Source: a virus
Taxonomy: Duplodnaviria > Caudoviricetes
Virus record (IMG/VR): IMGVR_UViG_3300046615_000261
Coordinates: 64,001-128,000 of that record
Reading direction: 5' to 3' (one strand)
DNA length: 64,000 nucleotides
Shown here piece after piece: positions 13,220 through 30,098 of the stretch. A model generated the notes under the pieces. It was given only the letters and a program-made list of their open reading frames with translations, was not told the DNA's origin and made no database searches. Made by a program: the position numbers and the translations under genes. Positions within the stretch are counted from its first letter, which is position 1, and every line of letters begins with the position of its first letter.

Positions 13220-13249
13220 ATGCCGTCACATTACTTAGACGGCAAATGA
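13220..13249 (+). CDS. 9-codon uORF MPSHYLDGK coupled to gp55
   Basis: ATG 7 nt after TACAAT (13208..13213); stop TGA overlaps the gp55 ATG (ATGA). Confidence 0.45.
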   Translation: MPSHYLDGK

Positions 13250-13734
13250 CCGAAACAACAACCAAGCCCAAGACAGTTAAGCCAGCCAAGAAAGAGCGTT
13301 CAAAGACCACCCAAGGTCATTACGTAAAGAACGCCGAGCTGCTCGCTGAATTCCATATCTGCAAAGCCAAGGGCGAGCTTTCCCCCCTGATGGCGAAGTA
13401 CCTGATGATGATCGCTGAACGGTACTCGTACCATCAGTGGTTCGCAGGATACTCTTTCCGTGAAGACATGGTTTGCACCGCTGTGGTGAATCTGTGTGCG
13501 AACTGGCATAAGTTCAATCCCGAGAAGTCCGATAATCCGTTCGCTTACTACACGACGGCCTGTTATCGCTCTTTCCTATCGTACCTTGACGCTGAAAAGA
13601 AAGAGCGTACGATTCGTGATGAACTCCTGATTGAAGCTGGCGCGAACCCGTCGTTCAACTATCAGGCTCGGCACGGTACTTCGGGTAAGACTTCTGATGA
13701 TACCGCATTCTCTGGCGGTGGTGGAGACGATTGA
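13246..13734 (+). CDS. gp55: Late-transcription sigma factor gp55
   Basis: HYVKNAEL...IAERYS...FAGYSFREDMV...FNPEKSDNPFAYYT...EKKERTIRDEL. Confidence 0.92.
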   Translation: MTETTTKPKTVKPAKKERSKTTQGHYVKNAELLAEFHICKAKGELSPLMAKYLMMIAERYSYHQWFAGYSFREDMVCTAVVNLCANWHKFNPEKSDNPFAYYTTACYRSFLSYLDAEKKERTIRDELLIEAGANPSFNYQARHGTSGKTSDDTAFSGGGGDD

Positions 13735-15883: not shown

Positions 15884-16423
15884 ATGACTTGCATCGTTGG
15901 TATTGAATTCAATGACAAGGTTCTGATGGGTGGCGACATCCAAGGGACCGGGTACAACAACAAGGTTGTGCACACGCAACCGAAGGTGTTCAACAAGAAG
16001 GGCGTTCTGTTCGGCTTCACGACCAGCTATCGCTTTGGCCAGCTCCTCGAGCACGGTCTTGCCGATCCAGTCGTTCCAGAAGACGACAATGAGATCTACC
16101 GTTGGCTGATCACTGTCCTGATTCCGGACATCAAGAAAGCGCTGAAGACCGGCGACTACGAAAAGGGTGGCACGTGTCTGATCGGCGTGAAGGGTCAGCT
16201 CTGGGAACTGCAAGACGACTTCAGTGTCTTGCGCTCTGTGAAGGGTTACACCGCTTGCGGCTCTGGCTATGAGTACGCAATGGGCTCGATGTTCACCACT
16301 GCAGGTCAACGCCCAAGCCTTAGCACCCAGCAAGAGTACACGAACGCAGTGAAAGCTGCGATCCTCACGGCCGGTACATTCAGCCCGTCCGTTGGTACCG
16401 ACTCCGTCGTCATTTCGAACTAA
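15884..16423 (+). CDS. Ntn-hydrolase peptidase (proteasome beta/HslV-like)
   Basis: MTCIVG (N-terminal Thr nucleophile), GGD, ACGSGYEYAMG. Confidence 0.8.
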   Translation: MTCIVGIEFNDKVLMGGDIQGTGYNNKVVHTQPKVFNKKGVLFGFTTSYRFGQLLEHGLADPVVPEDDNEIYRWLITVLIPDIKKALKTGDYEKGGTCLIGVKGQLWELQDDFSVLRSVKGYTACGSGYEYAMGSMFTTAGQRPSLSTQQEYTNAVKAAILTAGTFSPSVGTDSVVISN

Positions 16424-16426
16424 ACA

Positions 16427-18166
16427 ATGAGCTCCTCCCTTTATTTCCGCGAACTGTCGATTCGGAACTTCCTCTCGTTCGGCCAGAATGAAACGATCAT
16501 CGATCTGTCTGAGGCCGGTACGATTGAAGTCATTGGACAGAACTTGGACAAGGGCGGCTCGAACGGTTCAGGCAAGACGACGATCATCAACGCGATCTGC
16601 TACGCGTTGTACAACAAGCCGTTCGACAACATCTCGCTTCAGCGGCTGATCAACAGCACGAACGCGACGAAGAACACCTTGATGGAAGTGAAGCTTTCGT
16701 TCGAACGTGCTGGTGACGAGTACGAGATCACTCGTGTTCGTGGTGAGCATTACACGATCCGTCTGACGAAGAACGGTGAAGACATCACGCCAGGTAAGGG
16801 TGTTGCCGAGTGCGATGCCTTGATCGAGAGCGTGATCGGTATCAGCTACGAGTTGTTCACGAAGACGATCATCTTCTCGGGGAACGCGCAAGCTTTCCTC
16901 GAGCTGCCAGTCGCTCAGCAACGTCTGCAGATCGAAGAGCTGTTCAACATCACGTTGCTCTCTGAGAAGGCGAAGGTCCTTCGTGAGAACATCAAGGTCA
17001 CTGAAGGCGACATCAAGGTCCAGAAGGCCGTCGTGAAGCAGCAAGAAGTTGCTGTCGAGCTGTACAAGAAGCACATCACCGAAGCCGAGCAGCGAATCAC
17101 TAAGTGGGATCAGACTCGTCAGAAGGACATCGCCGAGATTGAGAACACTCTGGCAGTGGTCGGTACTGTTGACTTCGAACTGGAGCAGCTCTTGCACGAC
17201 GAGCGCTCGACGCTCGTTCAAGAAGGCGCGTACCTGGCTGCGAAGCTTGCTCCTGCCCGCAAGGATAATCAACAGCTTACTGCGGCTGTTGAGAAGCTTC
17301 TCGGCGAACAGGCTCATCTGGCTGACGCGACCTGCCCGTACTGTGCACAGAGTTTCGCCGATGCTCCAGCACGACTGGCAAAGATCGAAGACGAAATTGA
17401 TGTGAAGGGTAAGCTCCTGATCCAGGTCGAGGCTGATGTTCAATCACTGACCGAGAAGGCACGTGAACAGCAAGCGCGTCTGAAGGAAGTCGAAGCCGGT
17501 ATTCAGCACTCGAATCTGAACGAGCTCCTGTCTGCCCGTGAGAATGCATCTGTCCTTCGCACGAAGATGAACGATCTGAAGAACGCCGTGAATCCTCACG
17601 TCGAAGCTCTGGAACGCCTGCTTGCCGAAGACTGCAAGGAAGCCGATCATGCAAAGGTCGATGCCCTGCACAAGCGGCTCGAGCACATGCAGTTCCTGAT
17701 GAAGCTCTTGACGAACAAGGACTCGTTCCTCCGTCGCCGAATCATCAACAAGACGATTCCGTTCCTGAACGATCGAATCAACGGGTACACCGCTCAACTC
17801 GGGCTGCCACACATCGTTCGATTCGATGCTGACATGAGCTGCACGGTCTCTGAGTTCGGCCGTGAGCTGGACTTCGGTAATCTTTCAGCTGGTGAAAAGA
17901 AGCGAGTGAACGTCGGGCTGGCTCTTGCCTTCCGAGACGTGCTGCATCACATGCACGCGAAGTCGAATCTGATGCTGGTCGATGAACTCGACGGTCAGCT
18001 CGATGGTGGCGGTATTGATGCGGTGATTCGAATCATCAAGGACAAAGCCCGAGACGAAGAGATGTCCGTGTTCATTATCTCGCACCACCCGAACGTGTCT
18101 GGCCGACTGGATCGAACGCTTATCGTTTCGAAACAACATGGCTTCAGTACGATCAGCGACGGCTAA
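16427..18166 (+). CDS. gp46: Recombination ATPase subunit (Rad50/SbcC-like)
   Basis: NGSGKTT Walker A, CPYC zinc hook, LSAGEK signature, LVDE Walker B, ISHH. Confidence 0.93.
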   Translation: MSSSLYFRELSIRNFLSFGQNETIIDLSEAGTIEVIGQNLDKGGSNGSGKTTIINAICYALYNKPFDNISLQRLINSTNATKNTLMEVKLSFERAGDEYEITRVRGEHYTIRLTKNGEDITPGKGVAECDALIESVIGISYELFTKTIIFSGNAQAFLELPVAQQRLQIEELFNITLLSEKAKVLRENIKVTEGDIKVQKAVVKQQEVAVELYKKHITEAEQRITKWDQTRQKDIAEIENTLAVVGTVDFELEQLLHDERSTLVQEGAYLAAKLAPARKDNQQLTAAVEKLLGEQAHLADATCPYCAQSFADAPARLAKIEDEIDVKGKLLIQVEADVQSLTEKAREQQARLKEVEAGIQHSNLNELLSARENASVLRTKMNDLKNAVNPHVEALERLLAEDCKEADHAKVDALHKRLEHMQFLMKLLTNKDSFLRRRIINKTIPFLNDRINGYTAQLGLPHIVRFDADMSCTVSEFGRELDFGNLSAGEKKRVNVGLALAFRDVLHHMHAKSNLMLVDELDGQLDGGGIDAVIRIIKDKARDEEMSVFIISHHPNVSGRLDRTLIVSKQHGFSTISDG

Positions 18167-18191
18167 ATAGCCGTTATACAATGGACTGATC

Positions 18192-19019
18192 ATGAAACTC
18201 TCCGAAATCAAAGCCCCAAAGAAGGACGAAGTCGTTCGCGACTCACAAGGTCGACCACTGCGTGGTCTCGCCAAGGAACGTGCTCTGCAGCAGCGGAAAC
18301 TCGACAAGAACTTCAAGGACTACGATATCAAGGATCATCGGATCGGGGTCGCAAAGGTCGTGAAGGAAGCAGCAATCAAGGAACTGGACAAAATTGCTGC
18401 CGAGCGCTTCGGCAGCTTTGGGTTCGCTGATCTAGAAGAAGACCAGGCAGCGCGACTGATCTACATCGAACGCGCGAACAAAATCGCTGAAAAGGAGTTT
18501 GGTGAGTTCGGTCTTATGTCATGCAACGCCACTGAAATTGCGCAGATCATTAACGCCAATCCTGCGCTGATTAAGAAGGTGAACGAAGAAGAGCTCGAAT
18601 CAAAGACTGCAGAGGACCTGTGGTCGGAGAACTCGAGCTCTGCCTCGAAGTACATCAGCACGGCGACTTATCAGGTCCGTCCAATCAAGGACAGCAAGCC
18701 AGTGAAGTACGAAGCTTTCTCTGTGATCAGCACGACGCGGAAGCCGTACGGCACGTTCACAGCTGACGAGCTGAACGCAGCCCTGAAGCCGATCCGTCCG
18801 AATCAGACTCCTGACGCTGAAGGATTCACGACGTACATCGACCCTGTGAAGGTCGACGCGTTCCAGTACTCTGGTGACCCAGTGAAGGTTGATCTCGGCA
18901 AGGGTGATATTCAGACAGCCGACGATAGCGACTACATTGTTCGCACTGTTGACGGGAACAACTTCGTGTACCGCATTGAAGAAGCCGGTGACTTTGAAGC
19001 TGGACTGAAGAAAGCCTGA
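18192..19019 (+). CDS. Putative internal head protein, two-domain
   Basis: MKLSEIK start after late promoter 18164. Confidence 0.6.
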   Translation: MKLSEIKAPKKDEVVRDSQGRPLRGLAKERALQQRKLDKNFKDYDIKDHRIGVAKVVKEAAIKELDKIAAERFGSFGFADLEEDQAARLIYIERANKIAEKEFGEFGLMSCNATEIAQIINANPALIKKVNEEELESKTAEDLWSENSSSASKYISTATYQVRPIKDSKPVKYEAFSVISTTRKPYGTFTADELNAALKPIRPNQTPDAEGFTTYIDPVKVDAFQYSGDPVKVDLGKGDIQTADDSDYIVRTVDGNNFVYRIEEAGDFEAGLKKA

Positions 19020-19021
19020 TC

Positions 19022-19798
19022 ATGAAACTTGCCGATCTATTCGAGGCAGTCGTCTCCGATTCTGCCCAAGCACTCAAACTTCTTGGTCTCGCATCCGATG
19101 CGTCCATGACCGACGTGAAGGCTTCATACCGCAAGCTTGCGCAAAAGCTTCATCCTGACAAGAATGACGGCAGCGCTGAAGCTACCGAGAAGATGAAGAT
19201 GGTCAATGCGGCGAATGACTTCCTACTGAAGCATGGGTTGTCAAAGGCGACAGCTTCAGCCCAGCCTCCTGCAGAGGATGTGAAGTTCACCAAGGAAGGC
19301 ATCAAAGAGGTCGACGATAAGCTAGAAGTGATTCTTAAGAATCCGGCATGGTTCGACAAGAAGGGCCGCTCAAAGTACATTGGACCAGTTCTTTTTGCAC
19401 GTGAGCGCCTCAAGGTTGCCGAACAGCTGATCGAAATTCTCCCAGCGTACGAAGCTGTCATGAAGAAGATCGTTGCCTCTTGGAAGAATCGTTTCGAGAA
19501 GCCAGAACCTTTCAAGGCTGCAGCGAAGGAATTTGAAGAGTTCTTCAAAGAACATAAGCCAAATGATCTTCAAGCCCTTCTTAATCGCATTGCAAAGAGA
19601 CAGCGCACAGCAGGGTGCACCTACCTTAAGGTGGAAACCCCACTTCGTAACAAGGTCAGCGACGAGCTCAGCGAGATCCTGAGTTCTCGTGAGAAGATCA
19701 AGGAAGCGGTAGTTGCAGTGGACAGAACTCCTGAGCAACGTGAACGTGCTGCGAAGGCTTCTGCTCGAATGAAAGCTCAGTGGGGTTCGACTTTTTAA
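19022..19798 (+). CDS. J-domain (DnaJ-type) protein with capsid-targeting-like leader
   Basis: MKLADLFEA; LLGL..DAS..DVKASYRKLAQKLHPDKN...EKMKMVNAANDFL. Confidence 0.85.
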   Translation: MKLADLFEAVVSDSAQALKLLGLASDASMTDVKASYRKLAQKLHPDKNDGSAEATEKMKMVNAANDFLLKHGLSKATASAQPPAEDVKFTKEGIKEVDDKLEVILKNPAWFDKKGRSKYIGPVLFARERLKVAEQLIEILPAYEAVMKKIVASWKNRFEKPEPFKAAAKEFEEFFKEHKPNDLQALLNRIAKRQRTAGCTYLKVETPLRNKVSDELSEILSSREKIKEAVVAVDRTPEQRERAAKASARMKAQWGSTF

Positions 19799-20673
19799 TG
19801 AAGCTCTCTGAAATCAAACTCTTTGAGGCGCCACTCGCTGACGTCTCGTACCACAAAGCTGCAACGACTGGATCGTTCTCCGCGAGCGACTTGAAGCTGA
19901 TCAAGAAGTACATGGAGAGCGGTCACTACAAGGACAAGCTCAAGGGCCTGCCTTTTGATCTGTACTTGTACATCGTAGACAACGGTGACGAGGGTGCAGC
20001 AGCGGCAGACAGCTATCCTGAGGGTGAAGTCATTCCGTCGATCTGGAAAGATCAGACGCGCAAGCTTTATCACAAGACCGACAGAGAGCGGATTGAGGGT
20101 GGCTATGAGCCTGATCCTGACGGTCTGGACTTCAGCGTTCAGCCATTCCCAGCGATTTTCGCGGCTGTTCGTGAACGAATTCAGAAGAATCCGAACAGCG
20201 TGCACTTCTTGCTTGGCGACAACTACTCAGATGAGCACCAGATGGGTGTGACACCGTGGATCGTCGCGCACAGACTCTGCCATTGCTATTCTGTTGGTGG
20301 CGGTGTGAGCGTCCCGCCTGAGTTGATCGCAGCGTACAAGAAGAAGAAGGGCATTCCAGCAGGCGAAGCGTTCACTGCAGGCTGGAAGGCTCTGCAAGCT
20401 TCACTGACATTCAAGAGCGCAAAGTCGAACAAGCTTATTGAGTCTGAAACCTCCGTCGAAATGAACGCGCAGTTCCTTGTCACTGGAGATATTCCACTTG
20501 ATCTTCCTGCGTACAGCGCGAAACTGAAGGAGCTCAGCGACGTCAGTGGTTTCACTCTGACCGATGATGAAATCGTTCAGCAGACTGAGATCTGGAACAA
20601 TGAAGTTAGCGAGTTCAAGGATCGCTGCAAGAAGGCCGCTGAACGTATTCGCGGCAAAGTGTTCTACGTGTAA
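19798..20673 (+). CDS. Putative internal head protein
   Basis: TAATG-coupled; MKLSEIKLFEA. Confidence 0.6.
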   Translation: MKLSEIKLFEAPLADVSYHKAATTGSFSASDLKLIKKYMESGHYKDKLKGLPFDLYLYIVDNGDEGAAAADSYPEGEVIPSIWKDQTRKLYHKTDRERIEGGYEPDPDGLDFSVQPFPAIFAAVRERIQKNPNSVHFLLGDNYSDEHQMGVTPWIVAHRLCHCYSVGGGVSVPPELIAAYKKKKGIPAGEAFTAGWKALQASLTFKSAKSNKLIESETSVEMNAQFLVTGDIPLDLPAYSAKLKELSDVSGFTLTDDEIVQQTEIWNNEVSEFKDRCKKAAERIRGKVFYV

Positions 20674-20697
20674 GCTCCGGGGGCTGATAAATACAGG

Positions 20698-21099
20698 ATG
20701 CAAAGTCCTGTATCCCCGAAGCTCAAATCCAAAGACGTGAAGAAGACACGCCTTGCACTCCTCGAGTCGCAAGGTTTCAAGTGTGCTATCTGTCAACTCC
20801 CATGTGATGAAGAGCAAGCCGTTCTAGATCACTGCCACAAAGGCGGTTGGATCAGAGCGGTCCTGCACCGTGCCTGCAACGCAGCCGAAGGTAAAGTGAT
20901 GAACTCCCTTCGTCGGTACGGTATCAAGGATCCACAGAACTTCTTGCGTGAATTGATGAAGTACCATGAGGTTCATGCTACTAATCAGACCGGGTTGATA
21001 CACCCGCTGCACTTCACTCCTGAAGAGAAGCTCGAGCGCTCGAAGGCGAAAGCCAAGAAAGCTCGGGCGAAAGCCAAAGCTGCTAAGTCAGCACAATAA
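20698..21099 (+). CDS. gp49: Recombination endonuclease VII (Holliday junction resolvase)
   Basis: CAIC...LDHCH.GG.IRAVLHRACNAAEGK. Confidence 0.9.
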   Translation: MQSPVSPKLKSKDVKKTRLALLESQGFKCAICQLPCDEEQAVLDHCHKGGWIRAVLHRACNAAEGKVMNSLRRYGIKDPQNFLRELMKYHEVHATNQTGLIHPLHFTPEEKLERSKAKAKKARAKAKAAKSAQ

Positions 21100-21114
21100 C
21101 TGAAAAGAGACTCT

Positions 21115-21708
21115 ATGACAGAACTTCCGCGCTGGACAGTGCGGCTTAATGCGACACGTCCAACTCCTGACTACCATGACCTGATCGCAATTGTTGCTCA
21201 GCACTATCACACGTACGTGTCTGCTGAGAACTTCCTTGCTCCGTACAACGCACGGGAACGATCGAAGTCTTTTTATACTCCGCCCGATCGTGAAACCCTG
21301 AAGCAGGTCGTGAAACAAGGTGGCATGAATAACGCCTCGTACTTCGCTCTCCTGAACGGCCTGATCAAGTTCTGCGAGACCACAAAAGGCATGCGCGCTC
21401 TTGCTGCTCCCCACCCAAGCACGATCCATTCGATTCAGGTTCCCCAACCTGCGTTTGAGTTGGTCGAGACGGCTCAAGACTGTACAATGGGAACTCATCA
21501 GCTCACTGTGCCAGGTGCTGAACCGATCTATCTGAAAGGCGTCCGCAATCCGGAGTCGATCAGGTTCGTGATCGTTCGCCCGAAGCTCAGTCAGTTGGGT
21601 ACTCCATCAGCCAAGGAGTGGGAAGCATTGCTGTTCAATCAGAACTACGGATACGTTCCGAACTGGGTGGACAGCACGTTGAACACTCGCTGGGCTGGCA
21701 AGTTTTAA
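21115..21708 (+). CDS. Hypothetical protein
   Basis: 197-aa ORF in a co-oriented run. Confidence 0.6.
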   Translation: MTELPRWTVRLNATRPTPDYHDLIAIVAQHYHTYVSAENFLAPYNARERSKSFYTPPDRETLKQVVKQGGMNNASYFALLNGLIKFCETTKGMRALAAPHPSTIHSIQVPQPAFELVETAQDCTMGTHQLTVPGAEPIYLKGVRNPESIRFVIVRPKLSQLGTPSAKEWEALLFNQNYGYVPNWVDSTLNTRWAGKF

Positions 21709-21723
21709 CCTGAAGAACTGACA

Positions 21724-21936
21724 ATGAACGCAAAGATCGCAAAGCAACTCCGTCGTATCGCCCGTGGCATGGTTGTTGCCGCTGAAGCTGAAGCCGCACC
21801 GAAGGGTCCGGAAGCAACTGGCAAACCTCTCTCGATCAAGAAGGTCGCTTACCAGCAGAACCAAAAGGGCACGATCAGCGTGGCGAAGAACACGTACAAG
21901 GGTGCGTACAAGGCGCTGAAGGCCGGCACTCTGTAA
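21724..21936 (+). CDS. Small basic hypothetical protein
   Basis: K/A-rich 70 aa. Confidence 0.55.
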   Translation: MNAKIAKQLRRIARGMVVAAEAEAAPKGPEATGKPLSIKKVAYQQNQKGTISVAKNTYKGAYKALKAGTL

Positions 21937-21939
21937 CTC

Positions 21940-22410
21940 ATGGGCAAGATCAAGAATAATTCGATTCCGGTCGGATATCAGATCCAAGTTCAATCGTGGG
22001 AAGGTGACGCAGATCGCTACCACACGTGTACCCTGAGCGGGCTGACCTCTCACGAGGTCGACTTTATCGCGTTCATCGTTCGACACTTTCGATCGGTGAA
22101 CGCGATGACCAAGCCTGGCCTTGGGAACATGTACGTTCATGGTTGGCAGTTGAAGCAACTGATCGACGAAGCGACCGTGAAGTTCGGCGTGCCGCAATCG
22201 CAGAGCATGCAGTACTTCGTGTTCGACGAAGAAGATGAGTACAAGGAAGATCACGCGTACAGCATGATCAGCACGCTGCTCGGCGAGGTCCAGTACACTG
22301 GCGACTACTCCGGGTATGCGCCCGATAAGCACTTCTGCCGCGTGTTTGATCTATTTGTGGTGTACGAGTACGAAGCTCCGGTCAAGGACGTTACGAAGCG
22401 ATTCACCTGA
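21940..22410 (+). CDS. Hypothetical protein
   Basis: 156-aa ORF. Confidence 0.6.
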   Translation: MGKIKNNSIPVGYQIQVQSWEGDADRYHTCTLSGLTSHEVDFIAFIVRHFRSVNAMTKPGLGNMYVHGWQLKQLIDEATVKFGVPQSQSMQYFVFDEEDEYKEDHAYSMISTLLGEVQYTGDYSGYAPDKHFCRVFDLFVVYEYEAPVKDVTKRFT

Positions 22411-22452
22411 TCCGCCTCCGGGTGTATAATGCCACATCACCTGGAGGTTTCT

Positions 22453-22965
22453 ATGGACATGCGTGATTCGAGTTGGTACCGTGGGTGCACCAAAGCACGG
22501 CGTGGTTTTGGTGCACGTCGCTTGGAGCTGATCGAAAAGCTCTGGGAAGAGCAGAACCTGCTCACGCACCTGATCATTCAGGGTCAGGCTTCTGGCCGCA
22601 CGCCAGCAGAGCTGGAGCTGGTCAAGAAAGGCATCGACGCGCTCAGGGTCGAGCTCGATGAGATCACGCTTCCGAAGGACGTGCGCTCGAAGCGCGAGAT
22701 CTGGATCGAGGAAACTCAGCTCCAGCGGAACGTCGCGAACCTTCCGAAAATCTCTGACGCTGCTCTCGGCGCAGAGTACGATCGTGATCTCGAAGAGCGG
22801 GTCTGGGCGAAGAAGATCCGCAAAGAGCGAAAGACCGATCACCCGGGCGGCGAGCTCGGGCTGATCGCAGATGGCATCCTCGGAGATCGCAAAGTACGTG
22901 AAGTGCTCCTTGGCGATATTCCGTTCGGCGTTCACCGTGACAAGACCGTACAAACTAAGCGCTAG
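22453..22965 (+). CDS. Hypothetical early protein overlapping the polymerase-like gene
   Basis: TATAAT 22425, SD GGAGG 22443, ATG 22453. Confidence 0.65.
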   Translation: MDMRDSSWYRGCTKARRGFGARRLELIEKLWEEQNLLTHLIIQGQASGRTPAELELVKKGIDALRVELDEITLPKDVRSKREIWIEETQLQRNVANLPKISDAALGAEYDRDLEERVWAKKIRKERKTDHPGGELGLIADGILGDRKVREVLLGDIPFGVHRDKTVQTKR

Positions 22966-24190
22966 AACGCTCCTTCACCCTCAGCACCCGCTGCACTGGA
23001 CTCGGTTCTGGCCGGACCTGCAGCGGTTGCATCGGACGCGCGTCGAAGCTCGCCAAGACCTTGTGCTCTGGCTGGCGAATCTGTACCACGGCGCGATCCA
23101 CTGCGGGAAACCGCTCGGCTTCTGCTCGATCCAAGTTCGCTTGATGGACCTCCGCGAGTGGGTCCGCGACTACAAACCCGCGCTCGATCATTTCTTCGAA
23201 GTGAAGCAGCTCGGTTTCCATTTCGACGAAGACAACACCGAGCTCACGACCCTCGTTCCGAGGAAGCTCCCGCCTGAGGAGCTGAACATCGTGGGCGAGA
23301 CGGCCGAGTCCCTGAGGTACGAGCCTCCGGTGGTGCCGGTGCACTCCGTTATTTCGAAGGTGTACCTATCACCGGGGCTGGACCATAAGAGCCTGGTGGC
23401 CCGGGTGTTGGTCCATGGCCGCCCTGAGCTCGTACCCCAGTTGAACTGGCTCCTGAAGCAGGGGCAGACCGAGCTGAACTTCCATTTCCAGCCGAGCGGG
23501 AAGCTAAAGCAGCGGGACACGAGTGTCTGGCCGATCGCTGCAATCGAGACGTGGCCGTCCTGGCTGCGTGAAGAGCTGTTCGGCCCCGGGATCGATCTCG
23601 ACTCGGCGTACGTGCAGTTCCTGATGCACCACCTGAAGGTCGTGTTCAAGGGTCGAGACACGCTGATGCAGACCCTGTTCCCAGACTTGATTCGACTGCT
23701 GGAAGACAAGGAAAATTTCCGCAAGGAATTATGCACACAAGTTCTCCAGCGGCCGTACAACGAGAAGTACCGATCGCTGATCAAGCAGGTCGTGATGAGT
23801 CTGGCGAACGGTTCGAAGATCAGCCCGGCCCTGCTCACGAACGGAGGCGGGTTCAGCCTGACTGCTGAACTGATCGTCGATGCTGCTCCGGACGCGACGA
23901 TCTCGGACTTGACAGCAATTGGAGAACGACTGAAACGGATCGCAGATCAGTTCGCTTCGGCTCGACGGTACGCATGCATGGATCTGCTGAAAAAATCGCC
24001 AACGCGGAAAAACGTGAAGCAGGTTTTTAGCGGGTATTTTTCGTGGGAAAGAAAAGCGCGGTACGCGTTATGGGAAGAAGTCGGGCGGCACGGGATCATG
24101 GTTCATGACGGGCTGGACGGGGTCCCGAAGGATCAGCTCGCCCGTCTTCCGGAGTTGATCAAGAGCCTGGATCTGAAGCTGACCGCGTAG
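22871..24190 (+). CDS. Compact PolA/T7-RNAP-superfamily polymerase-like protein (TV-Pol-like)
   Basis: Motif A GIDLDSAY (D242), motif B RSLIKQVVMSLANG (301-314), motif C MVHDG (H412/D413); start uncertain (ATG 22871 or GTG 22898). Confidence 0.65.
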   Translation: MASSEIAKYVKCSLAIFRSAFTVTRPYKLSARTLLHPQHPLHWTRFWPDLQRLHRTRVEARQDLVLWLANLYHGAIHCGKPLGFCSIQVRLMDLREWVRDYKPALDHFFEVKQLGFHFDEDNTELTTLVPRKLPPEELNIVGETAESLRYEPPVVPVHSVISKVYLSPGLDHKSLVARVLVHGRPELVPQLNWLLKQGQTELNFHFQPSGKLKQRDTSVWPIAAIETWPSWLREELFGPGIDLDSAYVQFLMHHLKVVFKGRDTLMQTLFPDLIRLLEDKENFRKELCTQVLQRPYNEKYRSLIKQVVMSLANGSKISPALLTNGGGFSLTAELIVDAAPDATISDLTAIGERLKRIADQFASARRYACMDLLKKSPTRKNVKQVFSGYFSWERKARYALWEEVGRHGIMVHDGLDGVPKDQLARLPELIKSLDLKLTA

Positions 24191-24275
24191 GCGCGAATTT
24201 AGAGGCATTAGGTGGCAGATAGCGGCCGGTTCCGTAAATACGGCTGCTATCCTCACAACATTACCGGACACCACA

Positions 24276-25712
24276 ATGGATAAATTCAATTTCGGCAAGC
24301 TGCGCGCGCTGGCTTCCGGCCAAAAGCTCGACGAAGCCAAAACCAAGTACCGCGCCGTAGAAGACTACGAGAAGAACGACGGCACTTGGCATGTCCTTGA
24401 CGACAAGGACAATCAAGACTCCCGCGGTATGCCAGAGTTCGAAGCGAAAGAACGTGCTGAATACCTGAACACCGGTATCCGCAAAGAGCGTCCAGTCTCT
24501 GCGCCTGTAAAGCGCGTAAAGCCAGGCGTCGTCAAGGAAGGCGTTTCGGACGCTGAGGACGTGTTCAATCGTCTCGAAGGCATCGCCAAGAATGGTATTG
24601 ACGCACGAGATGCAGAGAATATCAAGAAAGACATCGCCACCAAGCTCAAGCAAGGTTGGACTGCAACCGAAATCGTTTCGTACGTCCGTTGGACCGAAGA
24701 AATCAATCCTGACATCGAAGAAGATGAAGCGCTTGCAAAGATGAAGCGCGTCAAGACGGTCGTCCAAGATCGCCTCGGCAAGAAGGTTGACGAAGCGAAG
24801 GCCGACGAGCCAGAGAAGAAGATGTCGTGCCCAGGTTGCACCAAGAACGGTAAGAAGCTGTTCAGCAAGTTCACCGTGAACGCTGGTGCATGGTCCTGCG
24901 CTGATTGCGGCTGGGTGAAGGAAATGACCAAGACCGAAAAGAAGTCGCTCAAGGAATCAGCCTTGAACGAAGCCACGCACGAGACGAGCCTTGCAGATGA
25001 CGACACGACTGGCAAGTCCCCCGAGCAGACCGCTCAGTGGTTGGCCAAGAAGTTCAAAGTGCAAGTGAAGCTCATTGACGCTAACCCAAAGCACTCTGGC
25101 GGCTGGCCAATCTACGCGTTCACCGGTTCGGACGAAGCTATCAAGAAGCTCACGACGTACATCGGTGAACAAGACCTGAATGAATCAACCAAGGAAACTA
25201 AAATGAACGAAAGCATCAACAAGGCCCGCGCCCTCGCAGGTCTCCCACCAATGAAGCTCGTCGAAGCTGCTCCAGTCATGGAAGCAGGCGATGCAGCGAT
25301 CCTCGCGAAGGTCAAGGAAATCGGCAATGGCGGTTACATGGACCAGATCATTGTTCGCGCAGTGAAGCAACGCCTGGAATCCGGCAAGGAATCCGGCTTT
25401 GAGCACCCAGCGATTGTTCAAGCTGACAAGGTCATCAAGGCCCTCGGCCTGAAGGTCAAGGTCGCTGAAGCTGTCGTGACTGAAGGTACCGCTGGTCACT
25501 TCATGGAGCCAAGCGTTGGCCAAACCGGATCGATGCTTGTTCTTGACGACAACGCAGTCGTGAAGAAGCTTGCTAAGGTTCTCGGCCTTGATAGCGACTG
25601 GGTCCTGAAGGACATCGGCTCCGGTCTGTTCGCTGCGTACAACAGTGGCGATCGTCTCTCGATCTTCACGAACAAGAGCGACTACGTTGACGATCACCCA
25701 GACGCTGAGTAA
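24276..25712 (+). CDS. Putative prohead core/internal polyprotein with Zn ribbon
   Basis: Late promoter 24235; many L/V-x-E sites; CPGC...CADC. Confidence 0.55.
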   Translation: MDKFNFGKLRALASGQKLDEAKTKYRAVEDYEKNDGTWHVLDDKDNQDSRGMPEFEAKERAEYLNTGIRKERPVSAPVKRVKPGVVKEGVSDAEDVFNRLEGIAKNGIDARDAENIKKDIATKLKQGWTATEIVSYVRWTEEINPDIEEDEALAKMKRVKTVVQDRLGKKVDEAKADEPEKKMSCPGCTKNGKKLFSKFTVNAGAWSCADCGWVKEMTKTEKKSLKESALNEATHETSLADDDTTGKSPEQTAQWLAKKFKVQVKLIDANPKHSGGWPIYAFTGSDEAIKKLTTYIGEQDLNESTKETKMNESINKARALAGLPPMKLVEAAPVMEAGDAAILAKVKEIGNGGYMDQIIVRAVKQRLESGKESGFEHPAIVQADKVIKALGLKVKVAEAVVTEGTAGHFMEPSVGQTGSMLVLDDNAVVKKLAKVLGLDSDWVLKDIGSGLFAAYNSGDRLSIFTNKSDYVDDHPDAE

Positions 25713-25751
25713 GCGCTAGGTACGGCACTTACCGTGCCACCAGAAACGACT

Positions 25752-25775
25752 GAGGGACCCTAGGGTCCCTCTTTT
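25752..25775 (+). terminator. Intrinsic terminator
   Basis: gagggacc-ctag-ggtccctc-tttt. Confidence 0.85.
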
Positions 25776-25817
25776 GTTAGCTAAACACCGATCAGAACCG
25801 GTGTCTCTGAGTGTCGC

Positions 25818-26120
25818 TCAGAACTTGAACGTGACGATCGAGCTTGGTCGCGCGTACGTGTCTGATGTCCAGTCGTACGTGCCCTTGTAATCGGTCGCGT
25901 TCATCACGATCCCGTTCGGGCTCTTCTTCACGAAGTCAGCCAGGTCATCGGCCAATTCACCGTCGTTGTCGAGCTCGATGTAGTACACACCGCCATTCGA
26001 GCTGAACCGCAGATCGCCGAGATTGCACTTCCCTTTCATGCTCTTCACGTAAGCAGTGACCTTACGCTGAATTGCTTCGAAGTCCTTCTCGTTCCGGGCT
26101 TTGACATCAACCAATTTCAT
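25818..26120 (-). CDS. Hypothetical early protein
   Basis: TACAAT at 26144..26149 (-) and SD AGGAG. Confidence 0.65.
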   Translation of the reverse strand: MKLVDVKARNEKDFEAIQRKVTAYVKSMKGKCNLGDLRFSSNGGVYYIELDNDGELADDLADFVKKSPNGIVMNATDYKGTYDWTSDTYARPSSIVTFKF

Positions 26121-26149
26121 GTGTTCTCCTAGTCGGGATCAGGATTGTA

Positions 26150-26380
26150 TCACAACCCGAGACCGCCGAACGGGCTCTTCGATGCTGCCTCAATCCGCTT
26201 GTTGATACTTTCGATCACCAGGTCACGTTCGAACGCAGACATGTTCAAGGCCGTCTCGTACGGCACGCCACCACGGGTGTACGTAGCGATGTCGATCGCG
26301 GCCTGAATCAGGCCCTTGATTTCAATCTGCATTCGATCGATCATCTGAACGATTCTGGTGTGATCGCCAGTCAGAATCAT
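26150..26380 (-). CDS. gp51-like / tail chaperone GT-type C-terminal part
   Basis: GGVPYETALNMSAFERDLVIE pattern; lies in the -1 frame of the upstream gene with no SD. Confidence 0.55.
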   Translation of the reverse strand: MILTGDHTRIVQMIDRMQIEIKGLIQAAIDIATYTRGGVPYETALNMSAFERDLVIESINKRIEAASKSPFGGLGL

Positions 26381-27165
26381 TCGGAGAAAAAAGATACAGG
26401 ATTGAGCGGGAGCTCAACCTTCATCTCACCACCACAGTCCTTGCACTTCAGCGGCACGGTCTGCTCTGGTCCCCAACCGTTCAACTCAGCCGCAGCTTCG
26501 TTGATTCGATTCACCATTGGCGATGTGAGCTTCCGGATCCATTCTTCGATGAACTTCGGATCAGTGACATCGTCAACCTTCTCGACCATCGATACGAGAT
26601 TGATCACGGCCATTTCCTTCACGTCTTCAGCCGTGAATTCCTTCTTGTTCGCTGAACGATGGAACAGCTCGATCACGTCCTTGAACTTCATCGGACGAGT
26701 GTACACCTTCTGACCGGTCACGAGCTCAACGACACGCTTCTCTTCGATCTGAGTTGGGTCTAGCAGAACCATCTTCTGCGCGAGCGCTTCGAGATCAACG
26801 ACGTACGAGTGCTGCTTAGCTTCAGCACAGTCGTGCTTCACTTCGATTCGGTACTCCGAACCGTACGTCACGAGGCGTAGGAAGAACAGGAGCGCGTCGA
26901 TGTCGCGGCCAAAGAGCTCAAGCGGCTTCTTGATCGATGGGACGCAGTCCGCCATCACGGCCTCGAGCGCCTTCCCGTTGAACAGCAGGTCGGGATTCTT
27001 CAAATTGATTTCAGCCAGTGCAGTCATTGGGTGCACATGGATTTCGCCGTTCTTGGTAGACGAATCAAGCTCGCCGTTCACGTACAGCGCTGCTCGGGAT
27101 GGGAGCTGGAACGTTCTGCCTGGCAGTTTGATCTTTGCCAGGAGTGGATTTGTGGTGTCGGACAT
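26377..27165 (-). CDS. Baseplate hub/tail assembly chaperone, gp26-like
   Basis: FQLPSR...HPMTALAEINLKNPDLL...FGRDIDALLFFLRLVTYG..Y...CKDC; adjacent to the tape measure gene. Confidence 0.7.
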   Translation of the reverse strand: MSDTTNPLLAKIKLPGRTFQLPSRAALYVNGELDSSTKNGEIHVHPMTALAEINLKNPDLLFNGKALEAVMADCVPSIKKPLELFGRDIDALLFFLRLVTYGSEYRIEVKHDCAEAKQHSYVVDLEALAQKMVLLDPTQIEEKRVVELVTGQKVYTRPMKFKDVIELFHRSANKKEFTAEDVKEMAVINLVSMVEKVDDVTDPKFIEEWIRKLTSPMVNRINEAAAELNGWGPEQTVPLKCKDCGGEMKVELPLNPVSFFSE

Positions 27166-27239
27166 CAGTGTCGCCTTCGATCTAAATATGGAACCTACCT
27201 ATTTACGGGCTTTAGAAAAGCCCCTCTCGGGACCACTGG

Positions 27240-30098
27240 ATGGCAATCGACAACGACATTCTTAAAACACTGCAGAGCATTGAGAAGCTTCTCAAGAGCA
27301 CGTCGTCTGCTGCTTCCGGTAAGTCAACGTTCTCTCAGAAATTCGACAAGATCCGCGGGAAGAAACAAGACGATAACTCTGGCGACGGTAAGACCTTCCA
27401 AGCTTTCACGAAGAGCATGGATAAGGCTGATGACGCTCTGCTTGGACTGTCAAGCAATCTGTCTGGCTTGAACAAGGAAGTCGGCAGAACGACGTCTGGA
27501 TTCAGCGCTCTGAATGCGCAGATGTCGAAGTTCATGTCGGCTCTGCAAGTCACGCCACCAGGTGTGACACAAGCTGCAGGCGCTCCGAGAACTCGTATCC
27601 CTGGTAAGAACGGGCTTGGTGGTGTCGCACCAGGTATCACGATTCCTGCTCCAGCGGCAGGTGTAGGCGCTGCCTCACCAATGAAGCAAGTCATGGGGCG
27701 AATGCTTCAGAACTTCGGCCAAGCATCCGTTGGTTCTGGCGGCCTTGCACTCGCATTCGGCGCACTGATTGACGCAACAAAGCGTGTCACTGGCGAGTAC
27801 TTTAATTTGGCTGAAATGGGCATGGGCTCAGTCAGCAATCTGGCGACACTCTCTAAGAACGCGCTGATGTCGGGCATGGCTCTGAAAGAGTACACGGCCC
27901 TGATCGGTTCGAGCATTAATGTCGCTTCCCGCGCCGGCAATCTCGAGAACTTCCAGAAGATCATCTCGGCGCAGGATGCCCAGCTCGCAGCAATTGGCGT
28001 GTTCGGTGCAGAAGCCCGCGCAATGCAGGCTTCGCTGGCCCAGAGTTCGGCGCAGCTTGGTGTTCCGATCGGTGATCTGACGAAGGCAACTTCATCGCAG
28101 ATCGACATCTTTGATAAGCTCCGCAAGTCGTCGAACATGACGGCTTCTGAGTTCGCAAGCATGACTCGTTCTGTTGCGAACAGTGAAGAAGCTCAGAAGG
28201 AACTGCTTGGACTTGCGCCATCAGAACGTATCGCTCGCATGAATCAGCTCGTGCAGCTGAACAGCATCGGTACGAAGATGGGTATGGCTGCTGACGCTTC
28301 CGCGAAGCTCGGCCAGGCTCTGATGGCGGCACGTCAATCGACCGTCAAGGAACGTATCGACACTTCCGGCCTGATGTTGCAGATGGGTGCGTTCACTGGG
28401 AACGGCGCCGCTGGCCAACGTGGCATGGAACTTCAAATGAAGGGCCGCCGCCGCACAGAGGCTGAAGACGAAGAACTGCTGCAGATCTCGCAGACCTTTG
28501 AGCGTTCTGCTCAGACGATGTACCAGCAGGGTTCGCTTGGCGTTCAGAATGTTCTTGATCAGTTCGAAGAACAATCCTCAAAGGGTGCGTACGGCCAGAT
28601 GGTCAAGGCTGGCCGAGGAAAGTCGCTCGCTGAAGATACTGGCACGGTAAATCAAGTTGCGTTCGGACAGCACGTTGGTGAATTCGGCCAGGCAGTTGGT
28701 AAGCTCACTTCACTGTTCAACGGTTTCGAACAGAGTGTTCTCGGCCCACTCGTCGCAGGTCTTGGTGGTGGTCTGCTCACGATGTTCCGCGGTCCAATCG
28801 TGAACATCCTGTCTAAGGCACTTGGATTCGGTGGTGGAGCAGCAAAGGCTGCAGGCGCAGTTGCTTCGGCCGCTGGAGGTGGTGGAGCTTCAGCTGCGTA
28901 CGGCGCTGGCCAGGCAGTCGGTAAGACGATGTCTTATTTGTCAAATGCATTCTCGACAGGTAAGAGCGCAATTGCTGGATACATCCAGAACGTAAGACTC
29001 TCGAGCGCAATCATCAAGGATGCTGGCGGCACGACAATGGAAGTCGTCGGTCAGGTCTTCAAGGATGGTATTACCGCAGTGAAGGGTAGCGGCACGATGA
29101 TGGCGGACGGCATGAAGTCATTCACCTCAGTCCTGAAGGCATCCGCACCTGAAATGAAGGCAGCGTTCGTGGGTGGTCTTGATGTGCTCAAAGGTGGCGC
29201 GGGAATGCTCTGGACCGGTTTGAAGGGTATCACGAAGATCTTCGGCCCACTGAGCGGTCTGATTGATGCTGCGATCGAAATGTTCACTGGCGATATGTCG
29301 GATGCGCTGAACCCAAGTGGCGGCGTATTCAACCGCATGGGCGGGATGATCACGGCATTCTTCACAGCAATTCCGAACATGCTCATTGACGCGCTTGCGT
29401 TCGTGTTCGGTGATGAGAACATCCAGCCTCTGAAGCGCGGTTTTGACCTGATCGTCGGGTACATGAACTTCGCGATCAAGGACTTCCTCGCTCGTCTCGC
29501 AGGTGGTGCTGCTGACTTGATGGAATCGCTGCCATTCGTTGGCAAAGACTCTCGCATGGTCAAGATGCTGCGCGGTTGGCAGGATGGTCTGGTTGACTCG
29601 GCGACTGAGAACGTCGCGATGGTCGAGAAGCTTTGGGACAACAACAGCGCGACGATGGCCTCGATCTCGAAGGAGAACAAGGCAGTCGCTGACAAGCAAT
29701 CAGCTACCTCAGAGCAAGCTGCCACGAAGGTCGTCGCTTCTCAGAGCAAGTTCAACAACGTGATGGAGGCCGGTGCAGTGACGGCCGCTTCTGTCTATGC
29801 CGACGCTGCAGCACTTGCTGCACCACAGGTTCAGGTTGCAAAACAGGTCAGCACGGCCCCTGTAAATACTGCTGATCAGCAGACCGCTCAGGCACAGGCC
29901 GCGGCTGCAACCCAACAACAGCAAGCTGCAACAGTGACGTCCGATCTGGCGTCGGTGATGCAGTCCATTCTACAAGTTCTACGTGAGAATCTGCCTCGTC
30001 AAACTGACAGCTCTGAAGCGCTGGTCAAGCTCGTTAAACCGCAGACCTCTTTCCAATCAGCAGAAGACGCCGCAAATCAACTCTTGCGCCGCAGGTAA
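27240..30098 (+). CDS. Tape measure protein
   Basis: 952 aa, A/G/S-rich helical sequence with hydrophobic stretches; late promoter. Confidence 0.7.
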   Translation: MAIDNDILKTLQSIEKLLKSTSSAASGKSTFSQKFDKIRGKKQDDNSGDGKTFQAFTKSMDKADDALLGLSSNLSGLNKEVGRTTSGFSALNAQMSKFMSALQVTPPGVTQAAGAPRTRIPGKNGLGGVAPGITIPAPAAGVGAASPMKQVMGRMLQNFGQASVGSGGLALAFGALIDATKRVTGEYFNLAEMGMGSVSNLATLSKNALMSGMALKEYTALIGSSINVASRAGNLENFQKIISAQDAQLAAIGVFGAEARAMQASLAQSSAQLGVPIGDLTKATSSQIDIFDKLRKSSNMTASEFASMTRSVANSEEAQKELLGLAPSERIARMNQLVQLNSIGTKMGMAADASAKLGQALMAARQSTVKERIDTSGLMLQMGAFTGNGAAGQRGMELQMKGRRRTEAEDEELLQISQTFERSAQTMYQQGSLGVQNVLDQFEEQSSKGAYGQMVKAGRGKSLAEDTGTVNQVAFGQHVGEFGQAVGKLTSLFNGFEQSVLGPLVAGLGGGLLTMFRGPIVNILSKALGFGGGAAKAAGAVASAAGGGGASAAYGAGQAVGKTMSYLSNAFSTGKSAIAGYIQNVRLSSAIIKDAGGTTMEVVGQVFKDGITAVKGSGTMMADGMKSFTSVLKASAPEMKAAFVGGLDVLKGGAGMLWTGLKGITKIFGPLSGLIDAAIEMFTGDMSDALNPSGGVFNRMGGMITAFFTAIPNMLIDALAFVFGDENIQPLKRGFDLIVGYMNFAIKDFLARLAGGAADLMESLPFVGKDSRMVKMLRGWQDGLVDSATENVAMVEKLWDNNSATMASISKENKAVADKQSATSEQAATKVVASQSKFNNVMEAGAVTAASVYADAAALAAPQVQVAKQVSTAPVNTADQQTAQAQAAAATQQQQAATVTSDLASVMQSILQVLRENLPRQTDSSEALVKLVKPQTSFQSAEDAANQLLRRR

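Follow-up and report, generated by a model that had tools for sequence, protein, structure and literature searches.

Textbooks use T4-type phages to illustrate replication that relies on a family-B DNA polymerase and a DnaG-type primase. Here we examine a gene that would give such a phage an additional polymerase, of the family-A (PolA)/T7-like superfamily. It lies in a 64,000-nucleotide (nt) stretch of DNA, hereafter the window, that spans bases 64001-128000 of the 234.5-kb IMG/VR virus record IMGVR_UViG_3300046615_000261. The record, whose completeness is estimated at 66%, comes from an uncultured T4-like jumbo phage of rhizosphere soil, and its DNA is present in several rhizosphere metagenomes. 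Among the window genes are those for a T4-type portal, closest to that of the Ralstonia jumbo phage RsoM2USA (49% identity), a T4 baseplate protein, endonuclease VII and gp46/gp47-like nuclease subunits; a family-B DNA polymerase (PolB) is encoded in the same record. Our analysis predicts that positions 22937-24190 encode a stand-alone accessory polymerase of 417 residues that is probably active.

Two described groups of small enzymes offer the closest comparisons. The divPolA2 proteins (Yutin et al. 2024, Virol J 21:200, PMC11348598), such as AUR84708 of Vibrio phage 1.063.O and its ICP1 and barbavirus homologues, are ~420-435 amino acids (aa) long. They join a PolA palm and fingers to an N-terminal globular region of unknown fold, have no exonuclease and are found beside a regular PolB; the authors weighed roles as a repair DNA polymerase (DNAP) or as an RNA polymerase (RNAP) (PMC11348598). 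The TV-Pol family (Iyer, Abhiman and Aravind 2008, PMC2579912) is marked by a hairpin arginine, an RNA recognition motif-like palm with two aspartates, fingers that bear an RxxxK motif and a conserved Asp, and an antiparallel two-helix thumb at the N-terminus. We count with it the virophage V13-type enzymes and CcPol of SCCmec (PMC10061031).

RESULTS

The predicted structure has a family-A-type palm and fingers

The AlphaFold2 model of the protein, built from a 39-sequence alignment, has a predicted local distance difference test score (pLDDT) of 93.5 and a predicted template modeling score of 0.85. Searching the PDB with Foldseek, we found that the top matches were all Bst or Taq Pol I (E ~1e-3, probability 1.0). 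After realignment of the Foldseek matches, 136 chains had Z >= 8, and all 50 of the 50 listed were family-A DNAPs; the best was Pol theta (Z 10.9, 245 residues aligned, root mean square deviation 4.3), with Taq at 10.5 and Klenow at 9.8. A fold search independent of Foldseek returned family-A DNAPs or single-subunit RNAPs as 17 of its first 18 chains. The region of the model matched in that search was residues ~131-417, that is, the C-terminal ~285 residues. Its Z scores for family-A DNAPs were 10.1 for a Taq variant (252 aligned), 10.0 for Pol theta, 9.7 for Klenow and 8.2 for T7 DNAP; for RNAPs they were 8.6 for yeast mitochondrial RNAP (mtRNAP), 8.0 for T7 RNAP, 5.8 for the N4 mini-vRNAP and 5.4 for N4 RNAPII (6dt7_B). 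The yeast mtRNAP match covered the most residues (318 aligned, model 9-416). Alignment to family-A DNAPs with VIA-align (Z 9.6-10.9, ~245-254 residues aligned) indicates that a palm and fingers are present in the predicted structure.

Among the predicted viral structures of BFVD, the best matches were uncharacterised 400-550-aa proteins of uncultured phages. Virophage TV-Pol-helicase proteins followed (Zamilon, E 2e-4), then ordinary phage Pol I; divPolA2 members matched more weakly (E 5e-3 to 2e-2). A fold search of the ESM Atlas returned only an unnamed viral cluster, at a template modeling score of 0.49.

The model shows the layout of polymerase motifs A, B and C: a short strand that finishes at D242 and leads into a helix, a helix that contains K305, and a beta-hairpin with H412-D413. 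Before the hairpin segment described below come two short model helices (150-159 and 163-173) and a long one (33-54). No fold was matched to the N-terminal ~130 residues in the whole-model searches. A reading of the locus made earlier from the sequence only had assigned the gene to the T7 RNAP/PolA superfamily. The confident model agrees with that assignment: it matches the family-A/T7-like palm and fingers and nothing else comparable, and its conserved residues are collinear with the Pol I motifs. The predicted palm itself was matched both by Foldseek and by the further fold search.

Conserved residues run parallel to the Pol I motifs

We read residue conservation from 39 family sequences, with identity down to 22%, and checked residue numbers against the E. 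coli Pol I (Klenow) sequence and against T7 RNAP from NC_001604. Invariant in all 39 are R215, P229, R233, F237, D242, R284, K305, G314, W392, E393, R397, H412, D413 and G417, and D272 and D279 are mostly conserved. The two aspartates put forward in the sequence-only reading as the catalytic pair, D242 (codon at nt 23594) and D413 (codon at nt 24107), are where it had placed them, and both are invariant. On a strand end and, as H412-D413, in a beta-hairpin of the predicted model, they would supply the two catalytic aspartates of family A.

The conserved segments form one collinear series with those of Klenow. GKLxxR215DTS...P...P parallels TGR668LSS..PNLQNIP, LR233xxLF237 parallels IR690QAF693, D242 parallels D705, K305...M309...N313-G314 parallels K758...F762...Y766-G767, E393-R394-x-A396 parallels E840-R841-x-A843, and H412-D413 parallels H881-D882. 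When the family is aligned by hhalign to a PolA profile of nine sequences, the best path follows this arrangement: it pairs the R215 segment with GRLSS, K305 with K758 and H412-D413 with H881-D882, and it brings D242 to within 1 residue of D705. The probability of that path is ~1%, and collinearity of the best paths is the only hhalign result that we used.

Motif B is the segment that most resembles T7 RNAP. As had been proposed, RSLIKQVVMSLANGSK (R301-K316) closely follows T7 RNAP 627-642, RSVTKRSVMTLAYGSK, with 10 of 16 residues identical, and hhalign ranks it first among the local matches to T7 RNAP. The asparagine noted earlier in place of the motif B tyrosine is N313, at the position of T7 Y639 and Klenow Y766, and it is a property of the family: N in 37/39, M in 2/39 and Y in 0/39. 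Set against the family-A pattern RxxxKxxxFxxxYG, the segment departs at three places: K305 and G314 are invariant, but the Tyr is N or M, the Phe is Met, and the Arg position varies (I/R/K/L/V/E), with Arg present in the window protein (R301) and in only 10 of the 39 members. Motif C of the family reads HDG rather than HDE. Five residues past D242, Y247 (Y/F/M/L in the family) would, judging by the alignment, occupy the position of the Klenow steric gate E710 and of T7 RNAP G542.

Table 1. Coordinates of the polymerase gene, its motifs and the other features discussed (window positions)
Feature	Position	Strand	Description
Minimal family-A-type polymerase gene (predicted)	22937..24190	+	417 aa from conserved GTG; alternative, non-conserved ATG 22871 gives 439 aa
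Hairpin segment GKLKQRDTS	23498..23524	+	R215 in 39/39; parallels Klenow TGR668LSS (Pol I motif 2, TV-Pol 'hairpin arginine'); model strands 179-187 and 193-198; collinear hhalign path with PolA
Motif A, GIDLDSAY	23588..23611	+	D242 invariant; short strand then helix in model
Motif B (O-helix), RSLIKQVVMSLANGSK	23771..23818	+	K305 invariant; M309 at F762/M635 position; N313 at Y766/Y639; R301 variable
WERKAR segment	24044..24061	+	Invariant W392, E393 and R397; with R394 parallels Klenow E840-R841-x-A843
Motif C, MVHDG	24098..24112	+	Beta-hairpin; invariant H412-D413 parallel Klenow H881-D882 and T7 RNAP H811-D812
Upstream open reading frame	22453..22965	+	170 aa (178 aa from ATG 22429); overlaps polymerase start by 29 nt in another frame
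Sigma-70-like promoter match, TTCACC-17-TATAAT	22402..22430	+	Consensus match only; just upstream of the 170-aa frame
orf70	21724..21936	+	70-aa basic protein; motifs MNxKxAKxLRR and GxYKxLK; PHROG 15472 (unknown function), E 4e-6
orf197	21115..21708	+	197-aa protein; TnpB/Cas12f N-terminal WED+REC fold; frequent upstream neighbour
T4 late sigma factor gp55 homologue	13246-13734	+	34% identity over residues 46-117, E 4e-8; detected at ~13400-13600

The polymerase family is confined to T4-like jumbo-phage and metagenome contigs

We found at least 253 homologues of the polymerase at E <= 0.01, none with a Pfam domain and many on contigs of 200-375 kb. In a set of 1.84 billion proteins the family falls into 40 clusters (50% identity), and 70 of its loci are in IMG/VR. 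In 185,579 species genomes there were only 3 matches, all on short metagenome-assembled genome contigs of unrelated taxa, and these are most simply mis-binned phage DNA. We conclude that the family is unannotated and confined to T4-like jumbo-phage or metagenome contigs. Wherever it occurs, the gene lies between recombination-nuclease genes (gp47/gp46-like, endonuclease VII) and baseplate genes.

Megablast and tblastn searches for the gene in a phage collection (50,697 phage records for tblastn) gave no match, so that no cultured carrier turned up in the collections covered. Searched with PF00476, the phage record gave no match at E <= 1, although 10 control genomes were positive; the corresponding search with PF00940 had no positive control and was uninformative. 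With E. coli Pol I as the seed, a protein search yielded only sequences >92% identical, which were useless for building a profile. The Pfam scan of the polymerase matched no exonuclease family, in keeping with the earlier impression that no exonuclease domain is present.

Comparison with described polymerases

The polymerase shares with family-A DNAPs (Klenow/Taq/Bst, Pol theta, T7 DNAP) the palm and fingers fold and the counterparts of R668, R690..F693, D705, K758, E840-R841 and H881-D882. It differs from them in its size of only 417 aa, in having neither a 3'-5' nor a 5'-3' exonuclease domain and in lacking a recognisable two-helix thumb. Its active site differs as well: it has Asn instead of Y766, Met instead of F762, Gly instead of E883 and Tyr/Phe instead of E710, and R754 has no conserved counterpart. 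The PF00476 sequence model does not match the protein.

Like divPolA2, the polymerase is a protein of about the same size with a PolA core (matched from residue ~131) behind an unmatched N-terminus, no exonuclease and a PolB in the record. The two families are nevertheless unrelated in sequence as far as we can detect. A tblastn search of 50,697 phage records returned no match, the A2 profile had no hit in the Vibrio phage record MG592441.1, and hhalign with a 5-sequence divPolA2 profile gave a probability of 0.07%. The divPolA2 family retains a Pol I-like motif A (DYxxxE) and motif C (FDE/HDS). Its members are weaker BFVD fold matches than the virophage TV-Pols, and they belong to another phage group in which the gene neighbourhood is not constant, whereas that of the polymerase is.

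With TV-Pol, the polymerase has in common a minimal PolA/T7-like core without nucleases, a hairpin with an invariant Arg, two invariant palm aspartates and a motif B Lys, and a virophage TV-Pol-helicase is among its best viral fold matches. Unlike TV-Pol, it is not linked to a D5-like helicase, integrase, resolvase or transposase, either in the window or in its relatives. The RxxxK Arg is not conserved, no two-helix thumb was identified, and the genome that carries it is that of a large phage with a full replisome; this comparison is one of features. In the PolA-SSB primase CcPol-MP (Bebel et al. 2020, Rice 2023), the PolA catalytic protein binds a small ssDNA-binding protein encoded beside it, next to a helicase and a recombinase. 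Small neighbours are conserved at the present locus, where no helicase or recombinase is adjacent.

Similarity to the T7-like RNAPs and N4 RNAPII lies in motif B (10/16 with T7 RNAP 627-642), in the H-D of motif C and in the fold (Z 8.0-8.6 for T7 RNAP and mtRNAP, 5.4 for the 404-aa chain of N4 RNAPII). The polymerase is, however, less than half the size of T7 RNAP and has no promoter-binding N-terminal domain or specificity loop. It has Asn for Y639 and a bulky residue at the G542 position, and hmmscan gave no PF00940 match. Eight RNAPs with the T7-like architecture measured 777-885 aa, against 417 aa here, and hhalign to them stayed at ~1%. On these comparisons, we place the polymerase with the extra, minimal family-A polymerases of phages, in a family that is not detectably related to divPolA2 in sequence.

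The polymerase gene most likely starts at a conserved GTG

The frame that had been proposed for the gene, 22871-24190 (+), is open as described and encodes 439 aa counted from its first ATG. At least ~120 listed homologues are ~416 aa long and have the N-terminus MTRPY, whose first residue falls on V23 in the long frame, a GTG codon (22937). Since nearly all full-length relatives begin at this point, the polymerase most likely starts at GTG 22937 and has 417 aa. We rejected ATG 22871 as the likely start: no relative has anything corresponding to the additional 22 residues, and the stretch scores as coding in the frame of an upstream open reading frame (ORF) and not in that of the polymerase. 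The 439-aa form is therefore a disfavoured alternative.

This upstream ORF had been described as overlapping the polymerase gene by 68-95 nt in another frame. The separate frame stands, but the length does not: with the start placed at GTG 22937 and the upstream stop at 22965, the overlap is 29 nt, and 95 nt is reached only from ATG 22871. An early promoter had also been proposed. A well-placed sigma-70-like site is present (Table 1), but the regional count of 2 such sites is not above that in shuffled sequence (0.9 +/- 1.0).

The upstream ORF is a separate, lineage-specific gene

Is the upstream ORF a gene at all? Its ATG at 22453 has GGAGG 5 nt upstream, and the codon score of the region is best in its frame, at a level comparable to neighbouring genes. 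Natural substitutions in contigs of other rhizosphere samples were synonymous in this frame in 12 of 14 cases. Because of this GGAGG, the sigma-70-like site, the codon score and the synonymous variants, we conclude that the 170-aa ORF is a genuine gene under purifying selection. An antisense ORF of 200 aa (22351-22953) was rejected as a gene, with only 4/14 of the variants synonymous and a poor codon score.

Pfam and PHROG searches with the 170-aa protein returned nothing useful. In 5.8 billion proteins its sole match was a 99%-identical 170-aa entry, apparently itself. Among the 70 related loci a counterpart was found only in L015, for the first 66 residues at 40% identity; there the small ORF is at the same place and likewise overlaps the polymerase start. 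Closer relatives have other small genes, or none, directly 5' of the polymerase gene. The overlap region contained no indel in contigs of three samples, X1-X3, two of which are possibly the source of the DNA, so that at least one is independent.

The same gene contains a patch of microdiversity at 22527-22671. A minor variant present in X2 and X4 differs by 13 substitutions in 85 nt (22557-22641), almost all of them synonymous, while the flanking genes differ by few bases.

Two small genes are conserved upstream of the polymerase

Across loci, the conserved neighbours of the polymerase are a gp46-like gene, orf197, orf70 and a baseplate gene. The orf70 family is the most constant upstream neighbour: of the 70 related loci, 58 have a member detected by an iterated hidden Markov model, encoded on the polymerase strand and in most cases 0-500 nt 5' of the polymerase gene. 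In a single database case, P0122 (506 aa), an orf70-like N-terminus is fused in frame to the polymerase.

The orf197 gene is upstream of the polymerase in 49/60 loci. Its AlphaFold2 model (pLDDT 92.6) matched Cas12, TnpB or Fanzor in all of the top 29 fold-search results, with Z up to 10.4 and 157-160 residues aligned, and has no RuvC part. From this predicted fold, orf197 may be a domesticated TnpB half, namely the part that binds guide RNA and target DNA. A search for orf197 in five records that bear the polymerase, one of them a complete 358-kb genome, found none, but it had no positive control. A prediction of a complex between the polymerase and orf197 scored 0.00; it was run without controls, gave no verdict and was used neither for nor against an interaction.

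Ralstonia phage RsoM2USA, the nearest relative in culture, carries an orf197-like gene (gene 373, 22% identity) and an orf70-like gene (gene 374) but no polymerase. Since it has both without the polymerase, the two neighbours may be clade core genes in conserved synteny. At the polymerase position this phage has a 1.4-kb stretch, 251624-253024 of MG752970.1 (5841-7241 of locus L102), with no annotated gene and no ORF > 77 aa; no remnant of the polymerase is detectable within it.

DISCUSSION

Function of the polymerase

We consider it probable that the gene encodes an active, stand-alone polymerase of the family-A/T7-like superfamily. The enzyme would consist of a palm and fingers core with the complete catalytic set R215, D242, K305 and H412-D413, behind a ~130-residue N-terminal region and without a proofreading or 5'-nuclease domain. 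We call it accessory because the phage has its own PolB replicase and gp55 late sigma factor. Most likely it would serve as an extra nucleotide polymerase on recombination or repair intermediates. We infer its catalytic activity, template, product and partners; what the analysis shows is its fold in the model, its conserved residues, boundaries, distribution and synteny.

Several results weigh against this reading. Pfam hmmscan matched the protein to no family at E <= 10, a PHROG search gave nothing useful, and searches of PDB sequences with the protein and the family profile gave chance matches only (E > 0.1). Aligned by hhalign to single sequences and to small PolA, single-subunit RNAP and divPolA2 profiles, the family profile reached a probability of ~1% or lower. 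Since no sequence method reaches a named family, the superfamily assignment rests on the predicted structure and the positions of the motifs. The O-helix Tyr, conserved in the compared family-A DNAPs and in T7 RNAP, is Asn in this family, the Arg of RxxxK is variable, and a two-helix thumb was not recognisable in the model, for which no thumb-specific alignment was obtained. Taken together, these departures may point to an unusual chemistry, or to templated synthesis that is weak or absent. The recombination or repair role is read from one source, the gene neighbourhood, and a neighbourhood shared by syntenic relatives can reflect ancestry.

Perhaps, then, the protein is an inactive or non-polymerase derivative of the PolA fold, such as a structural or DNA-binding factor? 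The loss of the motif B Tyr, the variable RxxxK Arg, the unrecognisable thumb and the lack of a sequence-level family match would fit such a derivative. However, the family keeps both metal-binding aspartates, the His of motif C, the Lys of motif B and the Arg of the hairpin without exception down to 22% identity, and because these catalytic residues are invariant an active site rather than a scaffold is expected; we regard an inactive protein as very unlikely. If the protein is a polymerase, what does it make? DNA synthesis, by primer extension or gap filling, is our tentative preference, held at somewhat under even chances. We lean to it because DNAP matches exceed RNAP matches, the hairpin, LRxxLF and ERxA segments are of Pol I type, and a bulky residue takes the steric-gate position. 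RNA or primer synthesis stays in consideration because motif B is T7-like, Asn replaces the Tyr, and TV-Pol and CcPol set precedents; by analogy with those enzymes, priming in their manner would be an unlikely but plausible product, and RNA synthesis we judge slightly more doubtful. The fuller alternative is that the polymerase is an RNA-synthesising primase or a small phage RNAP, comparable to the 404-aa catalytic chain of N4 RNAPII. Its motif B (K-x-x-x-M-(S/T)-L-A-x-G-S, 10/16) does resemble T7 RNAP more closely than Pol I, yeast mtRNAP is the widest fold match and N4 RNAPII is also among the matches, and Asn at the Tyr position could contact a 2'-OH. The minimal PolA enzymes TV-Pol and CcPol-MP provide a precedent for priming (PMC2579912, PMC10061031). 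Yet family-A DNAPs score Z 10-10.9 against 8.0-8.6 for single-subunit RNAPs, and the hairpin, LRxxLF and ERxA segments resemble Pol I. The alignment puts Y/F/M/L at the E710 position, where T7 RNAP has Gly. A protein of 417 aa is too small to include a promoter-recognition domain, and the gp55 homologue of the phage serves late transcription by host RNAP; the sequence-only reading had expected such a T4-like arrangement, and the homologue is indeed detected in the window. On balance we think an RNA-making enzyme of this sort unlikely.

The remaining alternatives concern partners. The upstream ORF had been suggested to form a second subunit or, through a +1 frameshift, a fusion with the polymerase. 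That it is a real gene under purifying selection, overlaps the polymerase start with a plausible common promoter and has a similarly overlapping counterpart in L015 would be compatible with either arrangement. But apart from its self-like 99% match in the 5.8-billion-protein database it is an orphan, shared for its first 66 residues with 1/70 related loci. Family members begin at the conserved Met of MTRPY, and the only N-terminal extension seen, in P0122, derives from another gene, of the orf70 family. No indel occurs in the overlap in the X1-X3 contigs, at least one of them independent of the source. With an orphan ORF, no indel and no N-terminal extension from that gene, neither arrangement is supported, and we consider both highly improbable: the polymerase would work without the overlapping upstream gene, the latter being separate and lineage-specific and neither a subunit nor a frameshift partner. 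A partnership with orf70, orf197 or both has more to recommend it. By analogy with the oligonucleotide/oligosaccharide-binding-fold protein MP, which CcPol requires for priming (PMC10061031), these neighbours might supply nucleic-acid binding to a module like the PolA-SSB primases. The orf70-family genes are upstream on the same strand in 58/70 loci and often abut the polymerase gene, P0122 joins the two, orf197 accompanies the polymerase in 49/60 loci, and its predicted fold is that of the guide-RNA/target-DNA-binding half of TnpB/Cas12f. Against this, orf197 was not found in five polymerase-bearing records (the search without positive control), RsoM2USA has both neighbour genes and no polymerase, and the single P0122 fusion may be an artefact of gene calling or assembly. 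We therefore hold such a module to be unlikely. The most elaborate version, in which the polymerase, orf70 and the RuvC-less orf197 would form a three-part, nucleic-acid-guided or structure-specific priming/extension module that starts or restarts DNA synthesis at recombination intermediates, we hold to be quite improbable; if true, it would be a phage counterpart of the PolA-SSB primases equipped with a domesticated TnpB nucleic-acid-binding half.

Significance of a probable stand-alone accessory polymerase

A conserved second polymerase of the Pol I/T7 type across a clade of T4-like jumbo phages would mean that part of their DNA/RNA metabolism is undescribed. The family illustrates how much reduction and change an active site of family A tolerates with its catalytic residues still invariant: there is no exonuclease and no canonical thumb, Asn stands in for the O-helix Tyr, and the Arg that binds the triphosphate is variable. 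It is a naturally occurring case in which to test what determines sugar selectivity, fidelity and dependence on a primer within the superfamily. Small proofreading-free polymerases of this kind are also useful reagents. The frequent pairing with the RuvC-less, TnpB-like orf197 opens a second line of inquiry, into how TnpB domains become domesticated.

Other features of the window

Between the gp47-like (SbcD) and gp46-like (SbcC/Rad50) genes is a gene for a 179-aa HslV-family peptidase homologue (15884-16423, +; PHROG 1040, E 2e-22). Directly 3' of the polymerase gene is an ORF for a 478-aa acidic/lysine-rich protein (24276-25712, +) with no Pfam match, no PHROG match and a counterpart in 0/70 related loci. 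An Rfam scan of 18000-27500 gave no match at E <= 1.

Immediately past the polymerase stop codon, at 24193-24224 (+), lies a 32-nt intergenic element, GCGAATTTAGAGGCATTAGGTGGCAGATAGCG. The phage record has 3 copies of it, with 0-3 mismatches, the others being at 152372-152403 (+) and 202314-202345 (-) of the record. Contigs from elsewhere in the metagenome assemblies also match it, in both orientations. A regulatory site and the end of a small mobile element are both possibilities for this repeat.

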